Numbered from the stretch's first letter, positions 4,559-59,980 are shown. The stretch is DNA of 64,000 nucleotides from Escherichia coli (GCF_002854065.1 NZ_CP024151.1), one strand, 5' to 3'. Notes: generated by a model not told the origin, from the letters alone. Numbers and translations are program-made.

Positions 4559-5421
4559 GCTTAGTCAGCCGTTGTCTCCGGGTGTCGCGTGCGCAGTTGC
4601 ACGTCATTCTCAGACGAACCGATGACTGGAAAGATGGTCGCCGCAGCCGTCACTCAGATGATATGGATGTACTTCTCCGTATACACCATGTTATCGGAGA
4701 GCTGCCCACGTATGGTTATCGTCGGGTATGGGCGCTGCTTCGCAGACAGGCCGAACTTGATGGTATGCCTGCGATCAATGCCAAACGTGTTTACCGGATC
4801 ATGTGCCAGAATGCGCTGTTGCTTGAGCGAAAAACCGCTGTACCGCCATCGAAGCGGGCACATACTGGCAAAGTGGCCGTGAAAGAAAGCAATCAACGAT
4901 GGTGCTCTGACGGGTTCGAGTTCCGCTGTGATAACGGAGAAAAACTGCGAGTCACGTTCGCGCTGGACTGCTGTGACCGTGAGGCACTGTACTGGGCGGT
5001 CACTACGGGCGGCTTCGACAGTGAAACAGTACAGGACGTCATGCTGGGAGCGGTTGAACGCCGCTTCGGCAACGAGCTTCCGGCGTCTCCAGTAGAGTGG
5101 CTGACGGATAATGGTTCATGCTACCGGGCTAATGAAACACGGCAGTTTGCCCGGATGTTGGGGCTTGAACCGAAGAACACGGCGGTGCGGAGTCCGGAGA
5201 GTAACGGCATAGCAGAGAGCTTCGTGAAAACGATAAAGCGTGACTACATCAGTGTCATGCCTAAACCAGACGGGTTAACGGCAGCAAAGAACCTTGCAGA
5301 GGCGTTCGAGCATTATAACGAATGGCATCCGCATAGTGCACTGGGTTATCGCTCGCCACGGGAATATCTACGGCAGCAGGCCAGTAATGGGTTAAGTGAT
5401 AACAGGTGTCTGGAAATATAG
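4516..5421 (+). CDS. insD: IS2 transposase OrfB (InsD), DDE integrase domain
   Basis: 301 aa ORF overlapping insC in another frame, as in IS3-family elements; matches IS2 InsD. Confidence 0.9.
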
Positions 5422-5832
5422 GGGCAAATCCAGTATCCGGATGTGCTGCCAGCCTTCTCAGTTAACCGATGTTTTCCGGGCTTTTTGCCATACTGAGGAC
5501 TGATAACGTATTCCTGGTCGTAAAACCCGTCAATATGCGCCGGGGCATCGACAAAACTGACACAGTACGTCCGGAAAGAACTTAACGCTGCATGGCACGA
5601 CAATGCTGCCTTTGTCTTTACCAACAAGGCTCGTTCCCGCATAAAAGTTCTACGCCGGGATAAACATGGCGTATGGCTGCGTCAGGCCTTCACTACTTCA
5701 CACCGGAAGTCTTCCAGCCTGACACGAATATACCGTCCGGGCTCTTTCGCAGGTGCAAACAGTTTTTCACATTCGGCGAATGTCATTTCTGAATCCTGGT
5801 AACGCAACCACTGAACCGGCATATTACCGGGT

Positions 5833-6438
5833 TTGATTATTGTCGCAGTTATTTTATATCGTTTCCCCATATCGCCTCTCATCCTGACAACAAAATTACC
5901 GGCTGAGCCAGGGGGCCCTCACCCCCCTATAAGGGGTCCGCTTGGAAACATATCGAAGAAAACGGCCGGCGGGAGGAATACGGCGCGCTACCTGGGTCGT
6001 TATCTGAAGAAGCCGCCGATAGCAGCCTCCCGGCTGGCACATTACAACGGAGGGGCGAGCCTGAGCCTCCGTTACCTGGACCACAAAATGGGAGAAACGG
6101 CGACGGAAACGCTGACACAGCGAGAGCTGGTCGCGAGGCTGAAACAGCACATCCCGGAGAAGTTTTTTAAGATGGTGAGGTACTTCGGGTTCCTTGCCAA
6201 CCGGGTGTGTGGAGAGAAGCTGCCGCAGGTGTACCGTGCTCTGGGGATGGATAAACCGGAAGCAGTGGCGAAAGTGTGCTATGCACAAATGATGAAACAG
6301 TTCCTGAGTCGTGATCCGTTCGAATGCGTGCTGTGTGGCAACCGGATGGTATACCGCCGGTCCCTTGCGGGGCTGAATGTATCAGGGCTGAAGAAAAACG
6401 CGCGGGATATCAGTCTGCTGAGGTATATGCTGGCCTGA
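5833..6438 (+). pseudogene. IS91-family transposase, C-terminal remnant
   Basis: ORF contains ARYLGRYLKKPPIAASRLAHYNGG...LRYLDHK, typical of IS91/IS801 transposase C-termini; no N-terminal HUH/Y2 domain, left part cut by IS2. Confidence 0.4.
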
Positions 6439-6704
6439 CGCAGGCTAAGTGTGCCCGGGAATTGGTGCAGGAATAAAAAACAGCCTGTTGCGGTATAAGA
6501 ATCGACCATGCAGAGAGATAAAACACCGGAGTGGTGGGAAAAGCAGAAGAGCTCACGTGGCATAAGGCGTGGACAGCGGTATCGTCTGGTTTTTCAATTT
6601 CCTATACGTCAAGGATATTTAATGGAATATCAAACATTTGGCCTGATAACAATGCTCAAGGATTAATACCTGCAGGCTATGTTAAAGTTGTCCCCACACA
6701 CAAT

Positions 6705-6980
6705 CTACCTGTTTTCTCGTGTGTGCCACAGGCGCAATACATAAATAGTCTGGCCAGTAAGTTCGTAACGGATTTCGTACTCGCCAGCATAAATCCGTCT
6801 GACCTCCCTGGGTTCAAACTGAAACAACTGTTCTCCCATACGTGGATGAGTTAACAGAATGACCGGTGCCTGTGTCAGGGACTGCACCGTTCTGGCTGCA
6901 GCTGGTTTACTGGCCAGCGCCAGAAAATCATATAACCGCGCCAAATCAGAAAGCGCCTTACTGGTCCACTTCAGTTCCAT
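6705..6980 (-). CDS. Type II toxin, RelE/ParE family
   Basis: 91 aa, start overlaps the stop of the upstream small gene; pattern ...RRIYAGEYEIRYELTGQTIYVLRLWHTRE typical of ParE/RelE. Confidence 0.75.
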   Translation of the reverse strand: MELKWTSKALSDLARLYDFLALASKPAAARTVQSLTQAPVILLTHPRMGEQLFQFEPREVRRIYAGEYEIRYELTGQTIYVLRLWHTRENR

Positions 6981-7264
6981 CAGCGAGGCACCGGTAACGG
7001 ATTGTCAGTACCGAGGCTGTCCGCCCAGGCCTGTACAGCCTGATGGTCGATAACCTGTCCGGATGTCACATCGTCCAGGGCTTCCAGCGTCAGGCGATTA
7101 CGCTCCTCCTCCTGGGCAAGCCATGCAGAAAGCGCCTGTTTGATAATCCAGCCCCGGGACCGTTCCAGTCTGGCGGCCATCTGGTCGACTTTATCAGCCA
7201 TAGGTAATGGCACATGCGCAGTAATTACTTTTGTTACTTGTGCGGTATTGTTTTTCATTTGCAT
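6980..7264 (-). CDS. Type II antitoxin, ribbon-helix-helix (CopG-like)
   Basis: 94 aa immediately upstream of the toxin with 1-nt overlap; RHH-like segment RLERSRGWIIKQALSAWL; start could be the track M1 or the ATG 6 nt downstream. Confidence 0.7.
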   Translation of the reverse strand: MQMKNNTAQVTKVITAHVPLPMADKVDQMAARLERSRGWIIKQALSAWLAQEEERNRLTLEALDDVTSGQVIDHQAVQAWADSLGTDNPLPVPR

Positions 7265-7899
7265 ATCCGATTAGTTGTTAATCATATTTAATCATAGTGA
7301 TTACTTTCAGACGGAACAAGACAAATAATGCGCGTCAGCGCATGTAAGGCGGCATACGGTGGTTACATGTAGCACAGGAGTAAAACCGCCGAAGCCCGGC
7401 GTAAGCCGGTACGGACTGATAGATTTCACCTTACCCATCCCCAGCCCTGCCAGACCATACCCGCTTTCAGCCATGAGAGAGCTTCTGTGCGCGGTCGGAG
7501 TGGTCCCGACGAGGGTTTACCCGAAGTCGGGGCGTATCTCCGCGTTAGCGGGCCGTCAGGGCCGCTTACGAGCGTGTACTGAGAACTTCCAGCCAGAAGA
7601 CTGACAGCAATGATAATGTAGTTACAACATTCATAATTAAAAGCGACTCTGTTCCGGCCCGAAGGGCCGGGGCGGGGCCGCTTTTCAGTTATGAGGGAGG
7701 GGCTTTGTGGTTTCAGTTCTGCGCGGGACCGGGGTTTTCCTGGTGGTTGTATTTGAGTGTTGTAACTAAAATGGCTCCGGTCGGGGCCCGCCGCTTGCGG
7801 TGGGAGGTGCATATCTGTCTGTCCACAGGACAGGCAGTGAATAGGTTTTCTTTTTAAATGAATGTAGTTAAGTAGTTTAAAGGAGATATAAACAGGTGT

Positions 7900-8174
7900 T
7901 TAAAAGATACATTGCACCCTGTAAGGCTGGCGGATGGCGCTTTATGACATGAACGGTTGTAACCTTATGGGGAAGTCCCTTGCAGTTAAATGTGGATAAG
8001 CAAAATTCCTCGTCTGTGAGGCGTGTTTTGTATCAAAAACAGGAGGGACCGGATGCACCTGAAGGTGGATGATGAGGTTGTTTTTTGTATGCGGTGCTGT
8101 TTTTTTGTTCGCCGACAGGCTTCAGGCGTGCAGATGCCTCCGGTGCGGGCCGGATTATTCAGAGGAGGTCACTT
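7900..8174 (-). other. RepFIIA-type origin of replication (oriR) region, approximate
   Basis: Immediately downstream of repA1; DnaA box TGTGGATAA at about 7991-7999; AT-rich stretch. Confidence 0.5.
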
Positions 8175-9032
8175 TCAGGGGGAAGCTGTGGCCAGCCGGC
8201 TGTAATTACGGTTACGTGACAGAATCATGCGCTCTTTCACACGACGCTCCACTTCGCGTTTTACCGCCTCACGATTGGCAGTGAAGCGCCCTTCCGAGAT
8301 TTCACGCGTCAGCTGCCGTTTCACCAGGGTGACGATATCCTGACGTTCCCTGTTCGCATCACGACGCGCACGGGCACGCTTTATTCCACGGGACTTAAGC
8401 TCTGTCTGGTAACTGCGGAAACGCTCACGCACAAAACGCCAGGCTTTCGCTATCAGTTCATCCATACCCAGGGTATCCAGTCCCTGCTTTTTGCGCTGTC
8501 TGTTTTCCCATTCAACACGACTGCGGCGCGCAGCAACTACTGCATCCTCAGACACATCAAGGGCGGCAAATAGCGCCGGTGTGAACGTGATATCGGTCGG
8601 AATGTAGCACCCGATAAGCGGATCATATTCCGTCTGGTAGGTAATCAGTCCCAGCTCTGCAAGGAACGTCAAGGCTCGGGTGGCCCGGGTGATGGAGAGT
8701 TTTCCGGCAGCAGACTCCGTCGCCAGTCCGCACTCAATGGCCAGCGTAGTGATGGAGCACTGGACGCGGTTGGCCAGCGGGTCATAGTGAAAACACAGCC
8801 CCTGCAGCAGCGCATCAATAGCCCGGCGACGCAGTACCGGTGGCATGCGCCGACGCAGTCCCTTCGAACGGGCATGTGCCACATGAATGGCGAAATCAAA
8901 ACGGGAGGTGAAGCCCACCGCCTTTTCCATCAGTTTTTCGCAGAACTTCAGCGTTCCGGCACCTTCACGGGGTGTGAACACCGGATTCGGGTTTTTAACC
9001 TGTGAATAGTATTTTTGAAGGAGATCAGCCAT
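8175..9032 (-). CDS. repA1: Replication initiator RepA1 (IncFII)
   Basis: From internal ATG: [56 protein letters not shown]..., near-identical to R100/R1 RepA1. Confidence 0.9.
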
Positions 9033-53825: not shown

Positions 53826-54433
53826 GTTGAGTTTCGGGAGCCGCGGTTTTGACGTTTCGCGGGAACCTGCTGCTGTATTCCCTGTGGTATGAACTTCACC
53901 CGTTTGAGAACCTTCGCCGCAAGGGGCATCACTGCCACGGCCTGACGCACCTGTCCTGGGCAGAACGCAAAATTTTTTACCGGGTTTTGGGTAAAAAATT
54001 TTGTGGGCTGTTCATTTACCCTGGACAGTCAGTGCGGCAGGTTGTGGCTGTATCAGCCCCCGGCGACAGGGACTCATACGGGTGTGTGGCACCGGCAGGC
54101 AATGAGCAGGGACCCGCCGCAACGACGGAGAGCGCGTGCGCGAAACGGCGTTGCCCCTTACATCCCGGCGGCCTTTTGCCGGGATGCCGGGAGCGCAGGC
54201 CACGGCGCGACAAGGGTGGCGCGACCGGAACGGTCGCTGCAAGCCCGGGGTTTTCACGCATCGGACCGTAGCGACAGCCCGAAACCGCGCCAGCGGGTTC
54301 GGCGGAGACTGGCGGGTGCGCCAGCAGCTGCCTGTCGGAGTCGGGCCTGACGACCGGATGCCGCCAGGCAGCCGGGAGCCGAAGGTGCGCCCGGCAGACA
54401 GAACAACACTGCAGTAGTCAGAATCAGAGCAGC
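53826..54433 (-). repeat. GC-rich leading-region repeat, copy 3 (diverged in proximal third)
   Basis: Distal ~390 bp closely match copies 1 and 2; first ~220 bp diverge after the shared GTTGAGTTTCGGGAGCCGCGGTTTTGACGTTT. Confidence 0.75.
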
Positions 54434-54622
54434 AGATAAAGGAACAACAACATCAGGAACAGTTCCATAACATAAGAAAGAAACACTCCTGAGTCAGACA
54501 CATCACAGACGGGAAGGGTAACGGGCGACGCGCCAGCGTGGCCCGCTTCCCTTCCGGCAGGCGTCAGCCTGCCAGGGGTTTTCGCGCGGACTGACAGGCG
54601 GCCTCCACCGCCTGCCCCTGTA

Positions 54623-54814
54623 TCACCTGTTTCTGCTACCCTGTAAGATGTAGTGACCGCCCAGGAAAACCGCCTGCTGATTCGCCACAAAATCGCAGAT
54701 TTCATCAACAATCTGCGCGGTGGTGAGCGGTTTCTGCCCCATTTCACGACGCCGCGCATTAATCACGGCCCTGTAATTACGCAGAATTTCGCGGGTTTCT
54801 GTGCTGATATTCAT
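54623..54814 (-). CDS. Hypothetical small protein (63 aa)
   Basis: ATG overlapping the stop of the upstream 144 aa gene (ATGA), suggesting coupling. Confidence 0.45.
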   Translation of the reverse strand: MNISTETREILRNYRAVINARRREMGQKPLTTAQIVDEICDFVANQQAVFLGGHYILQGSRNR

Positions 54815-55245
54815 GACATCGTCTCCCCGTCCAGCGCCTGTAACACAACGTCCATTGCTTCGCGTTCCTCCCTGACGAATGCGTCACCGTCGCCCCCGTT
54901 CTCACTCCCGACGGCATACAGGCGCTTCATTTCACTGCCTGCCAGCGCCATCACTTTTTCCAGCATCACCGCCGGGACTGTCACCTGACGGCTGGCGCGC
55001 TTTTCTTCCATCAGTTCATGAACAACGCCGTGAACAACGCCGTGAACAACGCTGACATCCGCACCATATTCAAAGGCATCGTCCAGCCGCTGCATGACGG
55101 TTTCCAGCTCATCGTCTGTCAGACTCCAGTCCTGGGCTATGTGACGCACATCCCCACGGGTCAGCACCACGGCAAAAACGCATTCACTGTCCGGCACGTC
55201 TGTATCCAGCACTTCGCGGATAATTTCTTTAACAGTACAGTACAT
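54811..55245 (-). CDS. Conserved leading-region protein, paralog B (144 aa, DUF1380-like)
   Basis: AAGGAGA RBS; shares N-terminal MY-T-E--RE, S/LTD-E--TV and RQVTVPA segments with the 56961-57395 ORF. Confidence 0.55.
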   Translation of the reverse strand: MYCTVKEIIREVLDTDVPDSECVFAVVLTRGDVRHIAQDWSLTDDELETVMQRLDDAFEYGADVSVVHGVVHGVVHELMEEKRASRQVTVPAVMLEKVMALAGSEMKRLYAVGSENGGDGDAFVREEREAMDVVLQALDGETMS

Positions 55246-55291
55246 GTTCTCGTCTCCTTTACAGGGGCGGCATTGCCGCCCCGTCCGTTAA

Positions 55292-55717
55292 TCAGTCCAG
55301 AGCCGCGTAAATCGCGTTGCATTCGGGGTGAAATTCGATGTGACGCCACAACTGCGCATCGCGCATCCGGTAAAGCTGGGTCAGTCCTGCATCCCCGCTG
55401 TCGTGGTACAGCCACAACTGGCGGTTAATCACAAGGGAGGTCAGGATGATGCCTGCGGCATCAGCACTCACGGTACGGTCAAACCAGTTTGCACCGTTCA
55501 CCATGTGGAAACGGTCGCCATCCGGCATCATGTAACCGCCACCGTCCGGCAGGCGGATGAAGTGCCAGAAGCCTCCCTGATATTCCGGCATCATTTTTTG
55601 CGCCAGCGCGTACACATACGCCTCGGCATACAGAAAATCGTTGCCAAACAGATACGGCAGAAAGGAGAGACGGTCGCACTCTTCAACATTCAGAGTGACA
55701 GGTTTCGCATATTGCAT
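55292..55717 (-). CDS. klcA: Antirestriction protein, KlcA/ArdB family
   Basis: 141 aa; [18 protein letters not shown] and NAIYAALD segments parallel KlcA of IncP; GGAGGA RBS. Confidence 0.85.
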
Positions 55718-56133
55718 GATGTTTTCCTCCGTTGTTCACATATTCCGCGACACCGGGCGGTGCCGTGCCTCCATAAAAGCCGGGCGAACAGGCGGGGATG
55801 CAGGGGCGCAAGGGAAGCCGCAGCCTGACGCACACGGCTGACGGGAGTTGCAGGGTGAGACCGCGAAATCTGAGCGGGTGAACGACCGGAAAATCACGGC
55901 AGACGGGAAGGAGGGACCGGGTGACCGCAGCGGCGAAGCGTACCCTTGCATCAACGCCAGCCCGGCTAAGATGGAGGCACGGCACAGCCCGCACACGACG
56001 CTGAGGCCACATAACTGAAAAACCACAAGGCCATGCCCTGCATGGCCGGGTAAAGCGGAGCCGGCGGCGACTTCCTTTGTGCTCTGTCCGGGGACCGGCA
56101 GGAAAAAGGCGGGGATTTACCCCGCCAGTGTCA

Positions 56134-56910
56134 TCATTTCCGGATTTTTGCCAGGGCATCCGCCATGCTGCGGATTTCGGTCCGGGCTTCCCGGACCACC
56201 TCCCGCAGAACACCACGGTCAAACCAGCGGCGGGGCGGTTCATCCGGTATACGCAGCACATCGCAGGCCAGCCCACTGGACAGGATATGCTCAATACACT
56301 CACTGACCAGATACATTTCCACCGACGAAAAACGTGCTCCCCGGTTCACGATGGCATCGAGCACCACGGGCAGGTTTTCGTCATCTTCATCGAGCCAGCA
56401 GGGGTGATCGCTTTCCTTCACGACCAGGCGAAAGCGGCGCGTCTGGCGGGTCAGCAACGTCTGACCGGTGGTGGTCAGCGCCGCACGGATACGCCGCGCA
56501 TCTTCTGCCACCTGGTAACAGATGCTTCGTACCGCATCGTGCACCGCATCAAGAACAGCCTTGATTTCGTCTTCGGTCAGCCATTCTCCGGCATACGGGA
56601 AAGACACCTGCGTTCCGTCTGCCGGAAGTACCGGCAGCGACTGCCACTGACTGCCGGACAGTACCAGTTCCGCCCCGGTTCCGGTCAGTCTCTGAATGGC
56701 GGAGGCCAGGAGCGGCGGCAGTACGCCGCCGTGACGGTTGATAAGTAACGTCGCCAGCCGGGGCGCATCCAGCCGCACGTAAATGCTGATCCAGCCCGGA
56801 TAGTTCGGATTTCGCTGGTCAACATCCGTCTCTTCCGGCCAGTCCTGCGCCAGCAGCAGGTTACGGGCGTGACGACAAATCAGTGCGTTCAGCGTGCTGT
56901 TTTCGTTCAT
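56134..56910 (-). CDS. Hypothetical leading-region protein (258 aa from ATG 56910; track ORF extends to 56961)
   Basis: Internal [11 protein letters not shown] preceded by AGGGAGA; no recognisable motif. Confidence 0.5.
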
Positions 56911-56960
56911 GATTAAGCGTTCTCCCTGTATCGCCGCCCGCAGGGCAGGCGGCGATAACA

Positions 56961-57395
56961 TCAGTTGTTTTCGTGTGTGTTGTTTTTCAGCAGGGTGCGG
57001 GCCTGATTAACCACCGCCTGACGGCGGGTAACGCATTCCGGGACGGCGAGGCCGTTATCACGGGCGGCCCACTCACGTTTCCACAGTGCCTGTTCAGCGG
57101 TCTGAATCAGGGACGCCAGCAGTTCAGCAGGGACGGTCACCTGGCGGTTTTCGCTCACGTTGCTGATAATCTCCATCACCGCGGCGGAAGAAATACCGGA
57201 TTCAGTCCGCTGGTCTTCCGGGATGTCCTCCATGCGCGCCAGGACGGTCCTGATTTCATGATCGGTCAGAGAAATTTCCATACCGTCAGCCAGTGCCTGA
57301 ATCTCTTCCGGGGACCAGATAACCAGCATCAGCGGCGCGTCTCCCGGATACTTTGCTGCCAGCTCCCGGCATAGCGTTTCGCATGTTCCGTACAT
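56961..57395 (-). CDS. Conserved leading-region protein, paralog A (144 aa, DUF1380-like)
   Basis: AAGGAGA RBS; paralogous to the 54811-55245 ORF. Confidence 0.55.
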
Positions 57396-57408
57396 TCTCG
57401 TCTCCTTC

Positions 57409-57630
57409 TCAATCTTTGAAGCAGGAATCCAGTTCCAGAATTTCGGTATACGCCTCCATAAACAGGCGATTGGCGCGATACAGCGTCTGGCGTGTCAGGC
57501 GTTCAACAAGCACATCGGAATCAAAGCGACAGCGATGCTCCATATCGTTCAGCCTAGCCCGAAGGTCACACATGGTGTTGGCCACCTCCGCCACGTCGGC
57601 GCGAAGTTTTTCGTGTCCGGCATAGTTCAT
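57409..57630 (-). CDS. Hypothetical small protein (73 aa)
   Basis: ATG directly after the methyltransferase stop codon. Confidence 0.4.
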   Translation of the reverse strand: MNYAGHEKLRADVAEVANTMCDLRARLNDMEHRCRFDSDVLVERLTRQTLYRANRLFMEAYTEILELDSCFKD

Positions 57631-58314
57631 TTACGCAGCCTCCGGTTCAAACCAGTTATCATTCGCGGCCCCCTGCTGCATGGCCCGTTGCACGGCGGCC
57701 AGTCGTTGCTGTCCGGCACGGTGATACTGTTCAAGCAGCTCGATACCGATATACCGGCGTCCGGACTGGAGGGCGGCCACGCAGGTTGAGCCGCTGCCTG
57801 CAAACGGGTCCAGCACAATCGCGTTCGGATGTGTGAAGCTCTCAATCAGTGGTTGCAGGCTGGTAACGGGCTTTTCCGTCGGGTGATGGCGGTTGCCCGA
57901 ATATTTCCAGCCCAGCACGTCGGGTAATGGCTTCGGAGGCAGCGCCGGACGGCCTTTTGCCAGGATATAGGCGCATTCGTGACGGTACGCGACATACGCA
58001 GATTTGGATGTGTAGCTTTTGGTGAACACAAGGTGCCCTACAACGCTGAATCCGGCGCGTTTCCAGGCTGCCATAAAGCGGTCAATACGGTTCCAGCCAT
58101 AGAAACTCACCATCAGCGCATCTTTTTTTAGTACGCGGTACATCTCATTACTGGCAGGTTGCAGCCAGTCATCGTTAACGTCACCGGCAATGGTGCGCCC
58201 GGAACGGTCACGAAAACCAACGAGATATGGTGGGTCGGTTAAGATGAAATCAATGGCGTTATCAGGAATCGTGGCCATAACACGCACGCAGTCACCCAGG
58301 ATAAAACGGGACAT
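57631..58314 (-). CDS. DNA methyltransferase, beta-class N6-adenine/N4-cytosine type (DPPY motif)
   Basis: 227 aa with FILTDPPY near the N-terminus and DPFAGSGSTCVAA SAM-binding motif near the C-terminus; GAGGAGGA RBS. Confidence 0.8.
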   Translation of the reverse strand: MSRFILGDCVRVMATIPDNAIDFILTDPPYLVGFRDRSGRTIAGDVNDDWLQPASNEMYRVLKKDALMVSFYGWNRIDRFMAAWKRAGFSVVGHLVFTKSYTSKSAYVAYRHECAYILAKGRPALPPKPLPDVLGWKYSGNRHHPTEKPVTSLQPLIESFTHPNAIVLDPFAGSGSTCVAALQSGRRYIGIELLEQYHRAGQQRLAAVQRAMQQGAANDNWFEPEAA

Positions 58315-58699
58315 AACAGCACTCCTCCTCTTACAGAGGGCACCGGGAGGGCGCCCCTGTGGCGCCCGTTCTCCGCTGCCTGTGGGCTGTTCACCGCGTC
58401 CGGTAACGGGTCAGGCCGACCGTGGAATACCGCAGCCGTCGTCTTTCTGACGGCGAGGATATGCCGCGAAAGCGGCTTGAAGGGCATTCATCAGAAAAGG
58501 GCGACAGGCTGGCGTACACTGTCACCGACGCCAGCCAGGAGCGGTAAAAGCGCCCGTCCCGTGCCCGGCCGGACACGGGACACTGACCACAGGCAGCGTT
58601 CCTGCCGCGCCGCGTCAGCCGGCGCAGTAAAAAGAGGAGCACGGCGACATCCTTTGTCGGAAAAGAAACGGGCGGTTGCCCGCCCGTCTCCGTCATACT

Positions 58700-59626
58700 T
58701 CATCCGCCATAATGCGCCACCTTGTCGACTATCCACGCAGGTCCGGTGACTTCCGGCAGCTCATCGTCATCTGTCGGGGAAGACCATTCAAGTTCCCCCC
58801 ACAGCACATCAACGAGCTCTCCACGCTCATACAACTGCCAGCCACAGAAATTGCAGCCTTGTTCGGCGTACCAGTGCTCCAGCGTGCAGCTGAAACGGCG
58901 GCTTAATTCTGCAACAACGTCGCTTTCCGGCTGACACCACGGCGTGTCGAAATCCACCTGAATGAAGTTTTCTCCCTGACTGCTGATATTCAGGTCATAC
59001 CCACAAGGCCACTTCACGCCATACCGTTCGGTATACCAGTGATATGCAGAAGGAACACCGTTCAGAACACCACCGTTAAAGCCATTCACTTCAACATCCA
59101 GGCGGGTCGGCAGAACCGTCAGCAGGTCAAACGGCATGGTTTTTTCCGGCAGCACGTTGTCACACAGACGGTTCCACCACACCGATACATCCTCGTTACC
59201 CCAGATGTCACACCAGTCACCTCTTTTTGCGGTGAAATGCACAGTGATGATTTCCCTGACATCATCCGGTAATCCTTCCCAGCGACGCTGTCCAGTACCG
59301 CTCTGCAGCCAGAGTTTATGCAGCATCAGGCAGTTTTGCTCATCCAGCAGTACACCGTCCTGCAGGTATGTCAGCCAGCGGGTGAACGCGATATTCTCCG
59401 GCGATACAACGCCACGCCCGGCAGCCGTCAGTCCGGGGCATGGTTCAAACCGCACATCTTCAGTGGTCTGCAGAAGTCCGGCACTTCCGGCCAGAAACAG
59501 CTGAATACCTTCATTTGTGGCGCGGCGATAAAGCGGTGTGACTGCACCGCTGGCCAGTCGTTTAATCTCAGCAATCTGTGCCGGTTCACCAGAAAAATGC
59601 ATACGATTTGAGCACCAGTTTGGCAT
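58700..59626 (-). CDS. Hypothetical Cys/Trp-rich leading-region protein (308 aa from ATG 59626; track ORF extends to 59671)
   Basis: Internal ATG MPNWCSNRMHF preceded by GAGAGGAGAA; multiple C-x-x-C/W-C motifs. Confidence 0.55.
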   Translation of the reverse strand: MPNWCSNRMHFSGEPAQIAEIKRLASGAVTPLYRRATNEGIQLFLAGSAGLLQTTEDVRFEPCPGLTAAGRGVVSPENIAFTRWLTYLQDGVLLDEQNCLMLHKLWLQSGTGQRRWEGLPDDVREIITVHFTAKRGDWCDIWGNEDVSVWWNRLCDNVLPEKTMPFDLLTVLPTRLDVEVNGFNGGVLNGVPSAYHWYTERYGVKWPCGYDLNISSQGENFIQVDFDTPWCQPESDVVAELSRRFSCTLEHWYAEQGCNFCGWQLYERGELVDVLWGELEWSSPTDDDELPEVTGPAWIVDKVAHYGG

Positions 59627-59980
59627 GGGAATTCTCCTCTCACATGCGGCCTCTATCAGGCCGTGCCGCACCTGTAACCGGGCGACCGCATACGAATGCA
59701 GGTGCGGCCCCGAAGCCGCAGCGCGTGGAGGAGGAACGACGAAACGTGACCGGGTGAGGAGGCCGGCGACAGCGACACACTTGCATCGGATGCAGCCCGG
59801 TTAACGTGCCGGCACGGCCTGGGTAACCAGGTATTTTATTCACAGAACCGTGCGCAAAATGCTGTGGATAAGCTGGACACAGCAGTCCACAGCAGGCATA
59901 CAGCCACACCCTCAGAGAATTGAGCGTTTTTTAGTCACAATAATGACATTTGACTGTGTGTGGATTCAGTTATTAGAATG

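Follow-up and report, generated by a model that had tools for sequence, protein, structure and literature searches.

Why does one plasmid region carry two diverged copies of the same small protein, and do these copies act on their own, with the open reading frames (ORFs) that follow them, or with the genes that precede them? The question is raised by a 64,000-nucleotide stretch of Escherichia coli DNA (GCF_002854065.1, NZ_CP024151.1; the whole stretch is called the window here), in which an initial annotation had noted a pair of paralogous 144-residue proteins, one of them with an in-frame tandem repeat. Both ORFs are indeed present on the minus strand, at 56961–57395 (paralog A) and 54811–55245 (paralog B), and their sequences show that they are the two DUF1380 genes of the IncF/IncI leading region, the part of such plasmids that is transferred first, and the product of an ancient duplication. 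As DUF1380 genes they are already known and annotated, and the RefSeq label for both is ‘DUF1380 family protein’. The modestly new point is that they represent two ancient operon-specific lineages, which are tied to the anti-restriction genes upstream of them and not to the small ORFs downstream.

The paralogous pair and its two lineages

In a pairwise BLASTP comparison, A and B are 29% identical over 119 residues (E = 2e-11), a significant alignment which, together with the motifs common to both proteins, bears out the proposed duplication. A, of the YubF/YcgB/Hp10 type, matches the Pfam profile of the family (PF07128) with 179.2 bits, its residues 1–136 aligning to profile positions 1–137. 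B, of the YubJ/YcjA/Hp12 type, scores 25.0 bits against the same profile, 1 bit below the 26-bit gathering threshold of the Pfam copy used. A precomputed PF07128.18 match exists for a protein identical to B (P0002), B matches a DUF1380 family profile with E = 1e-44, and it can be aligned to the family over its full length, with the common motifs MY(G/C)T at the N-terminus, a T/S-D-x-E helix cap and R-x-V-T-V-P-A. Both proteins are acidic, A with an isoelectric point (pI) of 4.7 and a net charge of −9 and B with a pI of 4.4 and a net charge of −17, and both share 92% protein identity with their copies in plasmid F.

The RefSeq start of A is longer (56961–57479, 172 residues here; 184 residues in F, at 6966–7520 of locus L002) and overlaps the gene of the preceding protein, YubE. 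The 144-residue start appears better supported because AAGGAG lies 7 nt before its ATG, the Pfam profile aligns from residue 1, and B and the distant homologs likewise begin with MY(G/C)T, which is MYGT in all of the distant homologs.

We compared gene order around these genes in 30 related loci, reaching down to 32–38% protein identity (given L numbers below). A methylase gene and the YubE gene precede the A-type copy in 28 of 28 loci, and B-type copies lie downstream of ArdB/KlcA in 14 of 14, one extra DUF1380 copy being interposed in L028. In a neighbour-joining tree, the copies found after ArdB form a clade that is cleanly apart from the clade of those found after YubE. Because the clades split by operon, we conclude that the duplication is older than the divergence of these plasmids and that each lineage has kept to its own operon. 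A and B are constrained coding genes under purifying selection, with dN/dS ratios (nonsynonymous to synonymous substitution rates) against distant orthologs of 0.18–0.33 for both paralogs, at saturating dS.

These observations bear on the possibility that A and B are conserved hitch-hikers of little or no function, kept inside successful, recombining leading-region blocks. B is cleanly absent from five loci, with p63, the ORF that follows B in the window, standing directly after ArdB (L012, at 6669–7331, L016, L022, L023 and L027). Such losses would be expected of a dispensable passenger, as would the tolerance of in-frame length variants described below and the lack of a phenotype in transposon-insertion sequencing (TnSeq) of a related plasmid (PMC4288162). 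However, the ORFs, their length, the MY(G/C)T start and the R-x-V-T-V-P-A motif persist at identities as low as ~20–30%, the dN/dS values are low even at saturating dS, the two clades have stayed apart since before these plasmids diversified, and extra copies have been gained, up to four in L028. We therefore regard a hitch-hiker status as unlikely. The flanks of L012 are otherwise >90% identical to the window, and this locus is a natural B deletion that can be used for comparison.

The four copies of L028, a Citrobacter werkmanii contig, lie within 4929–8506 and comprise A, an extra copy before the gene for a 258-residue protein, an extra copy after ArdB, and B. L003 holds two paralogs of the 258-residue gene. 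The leading-region families of these loci duplicate repeatedly.

The family as a whole is small and confined to these enterobacterial plasmids. A search of 1.84 billion representative proteins returned only 285 relatives, many of which are fragments, and a profile scan of 100,044 species genomes found 20 loci, all on enterobacterial plasmid-type contigs. Contigs labelled Streptomyces morookaense, Oscillibacter, Oscillospiraceae and Collinsella (L012–L015 and L019) carry the enterobacterial plasmid segment, with A-type protein identities of ~89–98% in L012–L015 and 57% in L019; these taxon labels are almost certainly due to contamination or mis-binning.

Operon context and probable expression on entry

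Between 52 and 60 kb of the window every gene is on the minus strand, and identity and gene neighbourhood together mark the window as the leading region of an E. coli IncF plasmid. A 3.3-kb segment is 100% identical to the E. coli plasmid pPM4-5-103k (IncFIB/FIC, MOBF), and it recurs at ≥90% identity in 5000 or more plasmid records, which come from Escherichia, Klebsiella, Salmonella and Shigella. The neighbourhood, running from umuD, DinI and DUF1281 to ssb, DUF905, a ParB-like gene, psiB, hok and DUF932, is that of a classical leading region, and the gene order is common to plasmid F and the IncI1 plasmid pESBL. By comparison with these two plasmids, A and B are placed after oriT and before the maintenance region, share their coding strand with ssb, psiB and ardB, and have the transferred strand as the template. 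In the tabulation of leading-region families by Samuel et al. 2024 (PMC11541004), the lineages rank 7th and 14th by size, and both are marked ‘Uncharacterized’: family 7 (YcgB/YubF) has 3957 members at a median of 19 genes from oriT, and family 14 (YcjA/YcgC/YubJ) has 3145 members at a median of 15.

The two genes belong to separate minus-strand operons. Operon 1 consists of a DUF1281 gene identified with Pfam (58700–59671), an orphan N6/N4 DNA methylase of the M.EcoGIX/YfeA type (57631–58314; PF01555, 134 bits), YubE, A and the 258-residue protein p258, of the YubG/YchA/Hp11 type (56134–56910). The methylase is 70–93% identical across all loci with A. YubE, a 73-residue protein encoded directly upstream of A (57409–57630; PF27407:YubE on orthologs), occurs in every locus with an A-type copy. 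Operon 2 begins with the ArdB/KlcA antirestriction gene (55292–55717; PF03230, 92.8 bits), whose product has the same protein accession as that of pESBL, and continues with B and p63, a 63-residue basic ORF with a pI of 9.8 (54623–54814; Hp13 of pESBL).

The operons are separated by a 416-nt intergenic gap (55718–56133), which is 95.6% identical to the interval between the p258 gene and ardB in F. This interval of F holds ssp2, a promoter active in single-stranded DNA (ssDNA), mapped in PMC12672017 and bioRxiv 10.64898/2026.01.09.698686; according to Fraikin et al. 2026, the leading region of F contains four operons, and ssp2 lies just upstream of ardB (yfgB). As ssDNA, the gap folds into a long predicted hairpin, with −95.7 kcal/mol for the coding strand (z = −4.2) and −103.1 kcal/mol for the template strand. 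A terminator-like hairpin with a T-run follows the 258-residue gene on the minus strand (56126–56108) and ends the operon of A. A scan for sigma-70-like promoters in 4.1 kb (54400–58500), on either strand, found none, compared with 1.9 expected from shuffled sequences, which fits operons that are not expressed while double-stranded. The homology to ssp2, the terminator-like hairpin and the absence of promoters together place A in the methylase operon and B in the ardB operon. Homology to ssp2 further suggests that an ssDNA promoter precedes the operon of B, induction having been measured in F and pESBL. Indeed, Wen et al. 2025 report that the operons of F and pESBL containing the KlcA and M.EcoGIX homologs show raised transcript levels in transconjugants, and classify the ssDNA promoters of these operons as class 2 and class 3.

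The strict adjacency of methylase, YubE and A in all 28 loci, the position of every B-type copy downstream of ArdB, and the fidelity of each paralog clade to its own operon could also mean that DUF1380 proteins are helpers of their upstream partners. A would then act on the single-strand methylase as a modulator, chaperone or restraint, possibly jointly with YubE, and B in the same way on ArdB/KlcA; neither would have a direct host target. However, the methylase remains 70–86% identical where A is only 30–58% identical, and ArdB is more conserved than B in most loci, which is a poor fit to tight, co-evolving complexes. In addition, seven loci have ArdB and no B-type copy, which means that ArdB can function without B. 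The upstream proteins also have activities of their own: ArdB reportedly inhibits restriction-modification systems, deletion of M.EcoGIX alone gives a restriction-evasion phenotype (PMC4288162), and M.EcoGIX was studied in artificial constructs (PMC7736820). A dedicated helper role thus seems to us rather unlikely.

Downstream ORFs and the repeat in paralog B

The initial annotation had proposed that each paralog is translationally linked to a small partner ORF downstream, hinting at two-component modules. For B the linkage holds, as its stop codon overlaps the ATG of p63 by 4 nt (ATGA). For A it does not: p258, which is not small, has its likely start 51 nt downstream. A 1-nt overlap (TGATG) arises only with the mechanically called ORF of 275 residues, which reaches 56961 and whose ATG has no Shine-Dalgarno sequence. 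The RefSeq start of p258, 51 nt after A, is preceded by GGGAGA, and distant homologs align from that first residue. Between A and this start, just before the p258 ribosome-binding site, lies a GC-rich hairpin with a 13-bp stem (56929–56957). A second GC-rich intercistronic hairpin, with a 9-bp stem (55264–55282), lies just before the ribosome-binding site of B. These hairpins could be elements of mRNA processing or stability, or structures in the entering single strand.

The modules themselves, whether toxin-antitoxin-like or obligate heterodimers of B with the 63-residue ORF and A with the 275-residue ORF, were overstated. The overlap of B with p63, the opposite character of the two products (net charge −17 for B, pI 9.8 for p63) and the frequency with which the neighbours recur are what one might expect of such pairs: p63 follows B in 11 of the 14 loci with a B-type copy, and p258 comes after A in 22 of the 27 loci that are informative. 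However, the partners also occur independently. In 10 loci p63 is found without B, either right after ArdB (L012, L016, L022, L023, L027) or with neither ArdB nor B (L017–L020, L026), the B-type copies of L005–L007 have no p63, and p258 is absent or replaced by an 89-residue ORF in L005–L009. The strict co-occurrence of a type II toxin-antitoxin system was thus not seen across the 30 loci, and p258 probably starts beyond a hairpin. Searches of Pfam, NCBIfam and PADLOC matched the pairs to no toxin-antitoxin or defence family. In the TnSeq study of pESBL (Yamaichi et al., PMC4288162), M.EcoGIX, Hp9, Hp10, Hp11, KlcA, Hp12 and Hp13 all scored 1.00 for non-essential, 0.00 for maintenance and 0.00 for transfer, and comparison with the RefSeq record identified Hp9 as YubE, Hp10 as A, Hp11 as p258, Hp12 as B and Hp13 as p63. 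Neither a partner essential for maintenance nor homology to a known family, as a type II system would have, was therefore found in these data and databases. Since the partners occur independently and insertions in Hp10–Hp13 give no maintenance phenotype, we consider obligate or toxin-antitoxin-like modules very unlikely. In the sampled loci p63 is commoner than B, and none of Pfam, NCBIfam, PHROGs and PADLOC assigns it to a family.

The repeat reported in B was confirmed by Tandem Repeats Finder, with a period of 12 and 2.8 copies at 100% match (55019–55052). It is in frame, reads GTTGTTCACGGC twice and then GTTGTTCATGAA on the coding strand, and encodes SVVHGVVHGVVHE (VVHG-VVHG-VVH). Chance is very far from accounting for a perfect period-12 array of 34 nt in 64 kb. 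In F and most plasmids there are two imperfect units instead, GC(A/G)TTGTTCACGAC-GTTGTTCGTGA, encoding (I/V)VHD-VVR, F itself having the GC(A) form. Comparison of repeat number across plasmids, which the initial annotation had proposed, revealed intact alleles with one unit (136 residues), two units (140 residues) and three units (144 residues) among protein clusters. The two-unit clusters have thousands of members, and the exact B protein of the window is found on 104 contigs. The three-unit allele is rare: among the matches listed, 9 records contain the 101-nt three-unit segment ungapped, from a total of 4796 matching plasmid records, 4041 of which fall in the identity band produced by a 12-nt gap.

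Distant orthologs have no repeat at this site of B. In the AlphaFold model the repeat falls inside a predicted helix (residues 64–85), the segment where the family alignment has most indels. The three-unit allele would have arisen by replication slippage on the older, imperfect two-unit microrepeat, and the extra unit would add four residues, about one turn, to the helix in the most indel-tolerant segment of the family. The repeat is a case of ordinary slippage, a rare and harmless-looking length variant. We also considered phase variation and rejected it, as the 12-bp unit is a multiple of three and keeps the frame, occurs in only 1–3 copies, and lies inside the coding region.

Candidate function and comparison with known systems

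We found no catalytic or DNA-binding signature in A or B. The AlphaFold2 model of B has six helices and a mean pLDDT (predicted local distance difference test) of 84.5. A Foldseek search for fold relatives among viral predicted structures gave nothing below E = 0.04, and a sequence profile search of the PDB gave only de novo designed helical proteins (E ≥ 0.005). Only families of unknown function were matched in PHROGs, and a tblastn search of the INPHARED phages gave no match, so DUF1380 is not a phage family in that collection. Weak Pfam matches to the PP-binding (acyl-carrier-like) domain in 3 of 28 members were rejected because the serine of ‘SLTD’ is not conserved across the family.

The most likely reading, to which we give about an even chance, is that A and B have an accessory role in establishment or anti-defence that is directed at the recipient. 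Within the recipient, each would bind a host protein and so neutralise it while the plasmid becomes established, in addition to the protection afforded by methylation and by ArdB. We infer this role because the proteins are small, acidic and helical, carry no enzymatic or DNA-binding signature, are probably expressed transiently on entry from operons that defeat restriction, and evolve faster than the lead genes of those operons. They are also dispensable in K-12 matings in just the way that the methylase is dispensable until a restricting recipient is used (PMC4288162). A and B diverge faster than any other protein of their operons; in L003, the methylase is 81% and A 32% identical, and ArdB is 40% and B 38% identical. 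This fast divergence fits a host-facing role. The involvement of the methylase in restriction evasion is treated in PMC4288162 and PMC7736820.

Several points weigh against a role in the recipient. Literature searches on DUF1380 and on the yub, ycg, ycj and yfc names found no functional study of the family, and PADLOC and NCBIfam gave no match for DUF1380 proteins. In E. coli K-12 matings, the pESBL TnSeq experiment gave no phenotype (PMC4288162), which fits an anti-defence role or no role equally. The seven loci that have ArdB and no B-type copy count here as well.

A more specific version of the recipient-directed role is that DUF1380 is a new anti-defence family whose two lineages, one in the methylase operon and one with ArdB, each neutralise a different defence or DNA-processing factor of the recipient. 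The VVHG helix would then be a host-contact surface with a length tuned in an arms race. We offer this version tentatively and consider it possible but doubtful.

For a resistance plasmid, survival during the first minutes after entry into a new host is decided by the leading region. Of the commonest leading-region families, a third are without a known role (Samuel et al. 2024, PMC11541004), and among these the two DUF1380 lineages belong to the most abundant. Our analysis sharpens the experimental target; it reveals no new kind of system, and the repeat matters little.

How does this locus compare with systems that are already known? With ArdA and Ocr, the mimics of DNA, DUF1380 proteins share a small size, a very acidic and largely helical character, a coding position in the part of a mobile element that enters early and, probably, expression at entry, and we found no fold similarity to either. 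Like the contingency loci of phase-variable genes, B carries a short tandem repeat within its coding region, with a copy number that varies between isolates. In contrast to those loci, the unit of B is 12 bp, there are one to three copies, and the consequence is a four-residue change in helix length and not an on/off switch. The leading-region genes with ssDNA promoters (ssb, psiB, ardA, ardB/klcA and M.EcoGIX) resemble A and B in region, in strand logic and in the transient zygotic induction reported for their operons; they have defined activities, namely SOS inhibition, inhibition of type I restriction and ssDNA methylation, whereas none is assigned to DUF1380. The closest counterparts are YubF/YcgB and YubJ/YcjA of F and Hp10 and Hp12 of pESBL, which belong to the same family and have the same gene order and operons as A and B. 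The window differs from F, pESBL and ~4000 other plasmids in the repeat of B, which has three units (144 residues) here and two imperfect units (140 residues) in those plasmids.

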